Source: a phage. From it: 64,000 nucleotides of DNA. Where the stretch lies: the sequence record PZ452598.1, one strand, 5' to 3'. Below are positions 22,351 through 22,663 of this stretch, one piece after another. How positions within the stretch are numbered: position 1 is the stretch's first letter; every line of letters starts with the position of its first letter. Position numbers and translations under genes: made by a program. The notes below the pieces were generated by a model. That model searched no databases. It had not been told where the DNA came from and was given only the letters and a program-made list of their open reading frames with translations.

Positions 22351-22462
22351 TATATTCTCTCATTTATTGCAGCAAAAATGAATTATACAATTCTTCATCA
22401 TATGTATTTGATAGTAATACTAACACGTTTTGCGATAAATATTAATTTAAAGGAGGATATAT

Positions 22463-22663
22463 ATGGTACAAAAATTAATGGCACTTGTTAATGCCATAAA
22501 AGGTAATAAGAAACGTATAGCTTTTACTATTTCTGCTATGGTAGGAATTTTACTCTGGAACTTTATTTTATCACCTGTTGCAATTGCACATGGTGTTAAT
22601 ATTCCAGTAGTTACTCTTGATACATTCGTAGATTTAGCATTTGCTTTAGTTGGGTTAATTTAA
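22463..22663 (+). CDS. hypothetical small membrane protein (66 aa) on the plus strand
   Basis: Strong SD AAAGGAGGATATAT-ATG; only plus-strand ORF sitting in otherwise non-coding space (22351..22659); hydrophobic. Confidence 0.5.
   Translation: MVQKLMALVNAIKGNKKRIAFTISAMVGILLWNFILSPVAIAHGVNIPVVTLDTFVDLAFALVGLI

Follow-up and report, generated by a model that had tools for sequence, protein, structure and literature searches.

Gene dam.1 of bacteriophage T4: a conserved plus-strand gene missing from the reference annotation, and the case for a late membrane protein of probable holin ancestry

Nearly all of the genes in the 64,000-nucleotide stretch of phage DNA analysed here (sequence record PZ452598.1; the whole stretch is referred to below as the window) lie on the minus strand, which carries 59 of the open reading frames (ORFs) of at least 120 amino acids, as against 2 on the plus strand. 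The 309-bp gap (22351-22659) between dam (21571..22350, minus strand) and gene 61, the primase gene (22660..23688, minus strand; both from the ORF list), departs from this arrangement in that its largest frame, and the only sizeable one, as a first-pass annotation of the sequence had pointed out, is a plus-strand ORF of 66 codons. The question that this locus raises is whether so solitary an ORF is a gene at all and, if it is, when in the infection it would be expressed and what its product might do. The stretch is the DNA of phage T4 and the ORF is dam.1, an already catalogued but functionally uncharacterised T4 gene that has been omitted from the reference annotation. On balance we favour, with some reserve, the view that dam.1 encodes a late-transcribed small inner-membrane protein of holin-family ancestry, which would act on the membrane late in infection.

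The dam.1 coding sequence (CDS) extends over 22463..22663 of the plus strand, from an ATG start through 66 codons to TAA, and specifies the protein MVQKLMALVNAIKGNKKRIAFTISAMVGILLWNFILSPVAIAHGVNIPVVTLDTFVDLAFALVGLI. A near-perfect Shine-Dalgarno sequence, AAAGGAGG, which the first-pass annotation also recognized, lies at 22449-22456 on the same strand and is separated from the ATG by the 6 nt ATATAT. At its other end the gene converges on gene 61 and the two stop codons overlap, likewise as first described: the dam.1 TAA (22661-22663, plus strand) and the gene 61 stop (22660-22662, minus strand) share the 4-nt sequence TTAA at 22660..22663, as read directly from the sequence. Outside these 4 nt, dam.1 is overlapped by no minus-strand gene.

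That the ORF was new, as the first-pass annotation had assumed, proved mistaken, since it is already named dam.1 in phage T4T, and hundreds of phage records list its product as hypothetical. The 421 bases around it are 100% identical to those of phages T4T, RB55 and RB59 and 99.8% identical to those of the reference T4 records. The T4T genome (HM137666) annotates the identical ORF as dam.1, hypothetical protein (T4Tp032, ADJ39749.1); the UniRef name is "Uncharacterized protein dam.1", and the identical protein is found on 268 contigs. Orthologues at the same locus, also on the plus strand and convergent with gene 61, are RB69ORF029w of phage RB69 and RB32ORF030w, the name under which RB51 carries the gene. 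The T4 protein is the founding type of PHROG 2024, a family of function "unknown", and matches its profile with an E-value of 1.5e-31 (residues 2-66 against positions 1-65 of 65), all 22 of the diverse family members that were scanned match this profile too, and the plus-strand position convergent with primase gene 61 is what the family shows in T4-like phages. In the reference records AF158101 and NC_000866 the dam.1 frame is intact and carries no CDS feature. The only difference from reference T4 in the region is at window position 22535, which is G here and A in AF158101 and X01416; it is non-synonymous, GCT becoming ACT in the reference and Ala25 of dam.1 becoming Thr. Our search of the literature on dam.1 found no paper naming the gene, and a search for ribosome-profiling or small-ORF studies of T4 found none.

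Searches with tblastn detected dam.1 in 693 phage records, and the match is near full length in 687 of them. About 500 of these records are from Tequatrovirus, at identities of at least 90%, and about 190, at 46-56% identity, come mostly from Mosigvirus (RB69-like) and in some cases from Gaprivervirus; matches were also obtained in Moonvirus and Gelderlandvirus phages. A second, diverged type, ~22% identical to T4 dam.1, occupies the same place in Dhakavirus, Marfavirus, Kanagawavirus and Mosugukvirus, where it is represented by JS98 (Dhakavirus) and by the Klebsiella phages Potts1 and Marfa (Marfavirus). The convergent position beside the primase gene is kept, by orthologues or paralogues, in Tequatro-, Mosig-, Gapriver-, Dhaka-, Marfa-, Kanagawa- and Mosugukvirus. 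On these comparisons dam.1 has been conserved in T4-like phages of at least nine genera. Everywhere it stands alone on the plus strand and converges on the primase gene, while the other flank varies: this is dam in T4, dam and an extra 546-nt ORF in T2, and gene 56 in phages such as RB69, JS98 and many Tequatroviruses (Nami, KMB23, PEC04, PhiZZ6, ECML-134; loci L005, L018, L020-L023 and L030), in which dam is absent and dam.1 stands directly between gene 56 and gene 61. Because it has been kept across so many genera, even where there is no dam gene, we argue that dam.1 makes a real contribution to fitness.

The reading frame itself has been conserved as would be expected of a coding sequence. 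Among 27 homologous loci, which cover identities from ~20% to 100%, the dam.1 frame is open in every one and is the sole frame of which this is true, the next-best frame being open in 8 of 27; conservation of the frame in related phages, by which the first-pass annotation had proposed to judge the ORF, thus bears it out. The ratio of nonsynonymous to synonymous substitution rates (dN/dS, by the method of Nei and Gojobori) has a median of 0.22 in Tequatrovirus and lies at 0.09-0.44 in most other comparisons; in one close Gaprivervirus pair it reaches 0.68. Between genera the synonymous sites are saturated (proportion of synonymous differences, pS, 0.75-0.89), as against 0.12-0.35 for the nonsynonymous proportion, pN. 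The gene is under purifying selection. A profile search of 1.84 billion representative proteins returned 17 clusters at E-values of 0.001 or less, all of proteins of 33-70 amino acids that share the pattern W-N-(F/Y/L) ... P ... G ... L-P ... (D/E). Judged by these sequence comparisons, dam.1 is almost certainly a real protein-coding gene.

The junction of dam.1 with the next minus-strand gene is also widely maintained. The stops overlap tail to tail in 21 of the 27 loci, and that next gene is the primase gene in all but one of the loci (L008). In phages ZX14 and PM2 the overlap with the primase gene extends to 24 and 21 nt, respectively, and in P896 and VR20 the ORF stops 108-203 nt short of the primase gene. 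In VR25-like Gapriverviruses the two types of the gene stand in tandem, as paralogues that are ~23% identical (L007 1995-2401; L025 and L026, 893-1095; L006). Where the second copy would be expected, VR20 has a degraded remnant in two pieces, P896 has a 108-nt unannotated gap and TH40 is without an intact copy. Another observation concerns the record of a mutant T4 clone, T4_583L (MZ375356; L120 1501-1910), which shows deletions of 2-4 nt scattered through the region, including 2 nt inside dam.1, 4 nt between the Shine-Dalgarno sequence and the ATG, and a truncation of dam. These lesions might be sequencing errors or tolerated mutations; we did not accept the record as proof that dam.1 is dispensable, because short deletions scattered in this way across a whole region resemble sequencing errors.

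When dam.1 would be expressed is suggested by the sequence upstream of it. The element GATAAATA at 22434..22441 (plus strand), 21 nt from the ATG, agrees in 7 of its 8 positions with the T4 late consensus TATAAATA, G replacing T at -13, so that the first-pass description of a late-promoter-like element with one mismatch was accurate. T4 late promoters consist of the 8-bp TATAAATA at -13 to -6, have no -35 element and direct the transcription of either strand (PMC2988020), and the placing of the late box between -13 and -6 relative to the start site is given in a second study as well (PMC1524935). Spaced in this way, the box would set a predicted late transcription start at 22447 on the plus strand, to within a few nt, which corresponds to about 17,722 in NC_000866, and a leader of ~16 nt. 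Among 50 listed T4 late sites, 32 have a perfect box, nine have A at -13 and most of the others show a different single deviation (PMC2988020), and in the T4-like phages the T at -13 is poorly conserved and variants are common (PMC1524935). The distance between box and ATG in dam.1 is typical, because canonical TATAAATA boxes on the minus strand of the same window, at 20335 (soc), 50364 and 59643, lie 29, 18 and 25 nt from their ATGs.

For every locus we examined the 70 nt that precede the ORF. In all 28 of the T4-like loci that have an upstream region of their own, the sequence NATAAATA is present and ends 13-33 nt before the ATG; a promoter-like box is conserved at dam.1 loci. Its form differs between lineages: the canonical TATAAATA is found in four loci from two genera (Potts1, Marfa, ZX14 and Kosakonia 305), AATAAATA in the RB69-like phages, JS98 and the Tequatroviruses without dam, GATAAATA in T4, T2, PM2 and one metagenomic phage, and CATAAATA in the Gapriverviruses and one metagenomic phage. 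GCTCGATA is an altered form of GATAAATA that we have conceived as a box mutant. Over the 30 nt that flank the box on its 5' side, identity among 13 representative lineages is 13-63%, a level near random for AT-rich DNA, and a Shine-Dalgarno sequence containing GGAG is present in all of the homologous loci. The heptamer ATAAATA has 8 copies on the plus strand of the window, and only the copy at dam.1 precedes a Shine-Dalgarno sequence and an ORF. As a control, the minus-strand ORFs were searched for ATAAATA at -45..-11, where it occurs in 3 of 85; two of these three, soc and the ORF at 50338, stand behind canonical TATAAATA boxes.

In phages of the T2 type dam and dam.1 are separated by an additional minus-strand ORF of 546-561 nt (T2, L003 1565-2200; BF15, L019 50-610). 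The ORF inserted in T2 has its end exactly at the box and similarity to T4 resumes at GATAAATA, so that the boundary of the insertion abuts the promoter-like element. A preprint on differential RNA sequencing of T4 (bioRxiv 10.1101/2024.04.04.588121) reports 150 phage start sites, 22 of them antisense. Outside the T4-like phages, members of the dam.1 family share their strand with tail genes. We consider it likely, from the box and its conservation, that dam.1 is transcribed late from this position.

The predicted product is hydrophobic, as the first-pass annotation had claimed, with a grand average of hydropathy (GRAVY) of 1.24. Its residues 1-18 would form an amphipathic, basic segment containing 5 Lys or Arg residues, and residues 19-42 appear by hydropathy as a clear transmembrane (TM) helix, the best 19-residue stretch being 23-41 with a mean Kyte-Doolittle value of 2.0. 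An AlphaFold2 model computed from a 22-sequence alignment (mean predicted local distance difference test, pLDDT, 79.5) has helices at residues 2-12, 16-42 and 52-63, and by hydropathy and model together the main TM helix would comprise residues ~16-42 (22508..22588, plus strand). A TM helix at 21-41 had been predicted in the RB69 orthologue (Nolan et al. 2006). Within the family, W32-N33 and P38 are conserved in the main helix and G44 just beyond it. The C-terminal segment P48-I66 (22604..22660, plus strand) combines a conserved Pro, the acidic residue D52 and a hydrophobic helix, and the last 25 residues include no basic residue, two Asp and a hydrophobic end. Since the N-terminus is basic, the positive-inside rule would place it in the cytoplasm. 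Helix 3 could lie on the periplasmic face or span back through the membrane; it probably re-enters or spans, which would make the protein a two-helix hairpin. We regard dam.1 as very probably a membrane protein, and the first-pass suggestion of a late-expressed membrane peptide is well supported by sequence comparison, the box occurring at 28 of 28 T4-like loci and the TM helix being followed by a second hydrophobic helix.

More general searches were of little help in naming the protein. Foldseek comparison of the AlphaFold2 model with viral structures found only the family's own members, a Pfam scan of the T4 protein gave no significant match, and a PADLOC scan gave nothing meaningful. Sequence matches in PDB to the TM helices of acetylcholine receptors (E-values of at least 0.06) were rejected as compositional, and NCBIfam matches to the major facilitator superfamily (MFS) exporter MxcK (E ~1e-3, with a cut-off of 525 bits) were set aside as noise between membrane helices. 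The toxin-like character that the first-pass annotation had offered as one possibility found no support: for a type I toxin of the Hok or Ldr kind, the sole hint was one match to Ldr_toxin (E 0.1) among 22 family members, and Rfam returned nothing credible for 21500-23800.

The one family to which dam.1 could be connected is a family of holins. Several members of the dam.1 family gave sub-threshold matches in a consistent register to three families annotated as holins, PHROG 3427 (E 5e-4), PHROG 11161 (E 0.012) and the Pfam family PF11351, GTA_holin_3TM. Longer relatives of 94-97 amino acids from Raoultella and Cronobacter, which have an added N-terminal helix, bridge the two families, the best match to PF11351 (P0133; E 8.5e-4, 20.3 bits) covering most of the profile. 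A k-mer search with distant members retrieved no PF11351 protein, and the bridge came instead from weak tblastn matches to annotated holins: a search with a longer relative led to two such holins, one of which adjoins a lysozyme gene, and from these to a comparison set of 80 loci with 78 distinct sequences. Six sequences of this set were scanned and all are true PF11351 members, scoring 52-78 bits. We take the name of PF11351 ("Holin of 3TMs, for gene-transfer release") to refer to the genes rcc00555-rcc00556 of Rhodobacter capsulatus, the membership of rcc00556 being our reading of the family name. The gene-transfer-agent lysis locus formed by these two genes is required for lysis and release (PMC5026251).

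Alignment of the whole dam.1 family with the PF11351 set by hhalign gave a probability of 94.9% (P 4.8e-8, score 45.3), in an alignment of 50 columns in which family columns 22-71 are paired with holin columns 66-121, that is, with the holin TM2-loop-TM3; the C-terminal segment of dam.1 is aligned there with TM3. The match persisted when the long bridging members were left out (91.7%, P 7.9e-7, score 38.7), with T4-like members only (91.1%, P 1e-6, score 38.2) and with the T4, RB69 and VR25 type only (89.1%, P 2.3e-6, score 36.3). Reversed alignments, as controls, gave at most 0.3% (P of at least 0.22, scores of 10.4-11.4), and the best of 30 column shuffles gave 3.4% (P 0.013, score 17.9). 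Homology between the dam.1 family and PF11351 exists at the level of profiles. The two families are alike in a first helix with an aromatic residue, a polar residue and Phe and then Pro, a loop with Pro and an acidic residue, a terminal L-x-G and an N-terminal amphipathic helix, and both consist of phage late-strand genes. They differ in length, dam.1 having 66 amino acids and PF11351 proteins ~130, and of the PF11351 architecture dam.1 has equivalents of the N-terminal helix, TM2 and TM3 only. We think it probable from these alignments that the dam.1 family (PHROG 2024) descends from the holin family, as a miniaturised TM2-loop-TM3 relative that is not a member by the measures of PF11351 itself.

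These results suggest how dam.1 might work. Transcription from its own late promoter of the gp55 type, GATAAATA, would yield the ~16-nt leader with its Shine-Dalgarno sequence, and the protein would be made late, from the strand opposite to the surrounding early and middle genes. The basic amphipathic N-terminal helix would lie on the cytoplasmic side of the inner membrane, one TM helix with the conserved Trp-Asn...Pro...Gly would follow, and beyond a short loop, in which a Pro is conserved, another hydrophobic helix, shorter than the first and bearing a conserved acidic residue, would probably re-enter or span the membrane and so complete a two-helix hairpin. The protein might then self-associate, or bind a partner, through the intramembrane polar Asn, and late in infection it might adjust the permeability or potential of the inner membrane or the timing of lysis or lysis inhibition; for the mode of action as a whole this is a guess, and one more apt to fail than to hold. 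The primary holin would in any case be gpT and not dam.1.

Several points weigh against this account of dam.1, and also against the first-pass suggestion of a holin or antiholin, which has some independent support in the reproducible remote homology to the PF11351 core. The T4 protein has no Pfam match of its own and the best member of its family, at 20.3 bits, falls below the PF11351 gathering cut-off of 24.8 bits. The dam.1 family lacks the long coiled hydrophilic N-terminal region of PF11351, its G-W-R-P motif and its basic C-terminal tail (R-S-F-E-K-x-K). A lysozyme gene lies no more than 1.5 kb away in at least 30 of the 81 PF11351 loci, whereas dam.1, which in T4-like phages is flanked by gene 61 and by dam or gene 56, adjoins no lysis gene. 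Shared composition can raise the apparent homology of membrane helices, but the reversed and shuffled controls speak against such an effect in this case. The lysis set of T4 comprises the holin T, the antiholins RI and RIII, and spanins, and t mutants fail to lyse; dam.1 is therefore not a sufficient holin. As regards expression, the G at -13 of the T4 box is a rarer variant than A, and a published hidden Markov model (HMM) scan of RB69 does not have RB69ORF029w among the genes preceded by a late promoter (Nolan et al. 2006).

Comparison with better known small envelope proteins does not place dam.1 among them. The class II holins or pinholins, such as S68 of phage 21, resemble it in having fewer than 70 amino acids, two hydrophobic helices, both ends probably cytoplasmic and late expression, which is likely for dam.1, but our searches detected no sequence similarity, and dam.1 is without the charged C-terminal tail of the pinholins. 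Pinholins are paired with signal-anchor-release endolysins, whereas the T4 endolysin, E, is a soluble enzyme released by the large-hole holin T. The T4 proteins T, RI, RIII, Imm and Sp are likewise small and act at the envelope, and T and RI are late or delayed and conserved in T-even phages; these five are encoded at other loci, Imm and Sp by early genes, and profile and family searches detected no homology of any of them to dam.1.

Relatives outside the T4-like phages are found in several settings. A prophage inserted in yegD of E. coli (L037 18211-20647), which is present in 25 of 5426 complete E. coli genomes, has a 70-amino-acid member as the last gene of its late strand; the order there is a DUF2730 gene, a glycoside hydrolase gene (1.5 kb from the member and on the opposite strand), five small ORFs and the member. 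In two unrelated phage contigs (L012 3260-4210 and L036 3272-4159) the dam.1-like gene follows a gene for a large tail (tail-tip) protein, a 94-amino-acid ORF and a gene for endonuclease VII, the 94-amino-acid ORF of L012 having an N-terminal TM segment and a coiled coil. A 59-amino-acid member lies 17 nt upstream of a 352-amino-acid RelA_SpoT-domain gene on a short contig (L034 129-1383). The E. coli prophage and the contigs L012 and L036 are suggestive of a lysis-cassette context; taken together, the settings outside the T4-like phages fit late expression and fix no function. Some database names for members of the family call for caution. "DNA packaging ATPase" is a mis-naming that occurs in E. 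coli phage UPEC01 and in several Klebsiella phage records (H102, H110 and H113; P0101), and the name "Holin" given in UniProt to A0A482MZV5 of phage OE5505 is apparently an automatic annotation.

Could the conservation at this locus be explained without a functional protein? It might be supposed that there is no gene, that the AT-richness of the DNA has left the frame open by chance, and that what has been conserved are minus-strand signals downstream of gene 61, namely a promoter for dam or gene 56 or a terminator for gene 61. In keeping with this the reference T4 annotation has no CDS here, an old T4 entry (X01416) places a potential early dam promoter at ~22417-22445 on the minus strand, and a terminator-like hairpin with a run of T, ATGGCATTAACAAGTGCCAT followed by TAATTTTTGT, lies on the minus strand at 22478..22497, inside codons 6-12 of dam.1. 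This hairpin could end gene 61 transcripts before dam. It is nevertheless a weak candidate, the scan having found 1 such site where 1.1 would be expected by chance, and by eye the RB69 and VR25 sequences show no obvious palindrome; we rejected it as the cause of the conservation because the count is not above chance. Minus-strand signals would also leave unexplained why this frame alone is open at all 27 loci, why dN/dS is well under 1, why HMM searches find homologues at the protein level in other types of phages and in prophages, and why the ORF is kept where dam is absent. Because of these comparative data the supposition that there is no gene is effectively refuted, and we hold it to be extremely improbable. 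A related proposal is that the main product is a late antisense RNA that damps the expression of primase or dam late in infection, the ORF being secondary or serving to stabilise the RNA through its translation. The tail-to-tail overlap of the stops with the primase gene is conserved and no terminator-like site was found on the plus strand in 21500-23800, and for these two reasons transcription of dam.1 late in infection would probably continue, in antisense orientation, into gene 61. Convergent transcription affecting gene 61, as put forward in the first-pass annotation, is possible on grounds of geometry only. That RNA is the main product is, however, very unlikely, in view of the purifying selection on the amino acid sequence while synonymous sites are saturated, the conserved strong Shine-Dalgarno sequence, the invariant residues that recur in relatives from unrelated phages and prophages lacking a downstream primase gene, and the gap of 108-203 nt before the primase gene in P896 and VR20. 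An antisense effect could coexist with the protein.

A different matter is whether a real late membrane protein need have anything to do with lysis. The resemblance to holins might reflect ancestry only, and the present job of dam.1 might be superinfection exclusion or the blocking of DNA entry, protection against, or evasion of, a host defence that is membrane-based, or the anchoring of assembly at the inner membrane. The genomic settings lend this some weight. In T4-like phages dam.1 never adjoins lysis genes, and members elsewhere are found after tail-tip or tail-fibre genes or at the end of a prophage, which are places that often hold accessory and exclusion genes; one relative is directly upstream of the RelA_SpoT-domain gene, and the regulatory tail of the holins has been lost from dam.1. 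Against this, no positive evidence favours any specific alternative, PADLOC included, and the sole homology signal points to holins. We therefore give a function unrelated to lysis a minor, though real, share of the likelihood, and a lysis-related role is likewise only a possibility, on the doubtful side. The more specific proposal, that dam.1 is an overlooked component of T-even lysis, a minimal two-helix descendant of the 3TM holins that, expressed from a late promoter of its own, would tune the moment of inner-membrane depolarisation or of triggering by T and thereby lysis timing or lysis inhibition, seems to us unlikely. Our preference remains for a small inner-membrane protein of holin-family ancestry that would be made, and act on the membrane, late in infection.

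What has been found at this locus corrects the annotation of the reference T4 genome; it introduces no new kind of system and has nothing mechanistically strange about it. Work on lysis, lysis inhibition and late transcription has T4 as its reference phage, and since the annotation of NC_000866 omits dam.1, studies built on that record may miss the gene. The conserved late-promoter-like box, the predicted two-helix architecture and the remote link to PF11351 apparently go beyond the database entries, and we found no paper that describes them. With them, what was a hypothetical protein becomes the source of a testable idea about what happens at the envelope late in infection, and if dam.1 should prove to be a component of lysis, a lysis pathway that is among the best studied would gain a further conserved participant.

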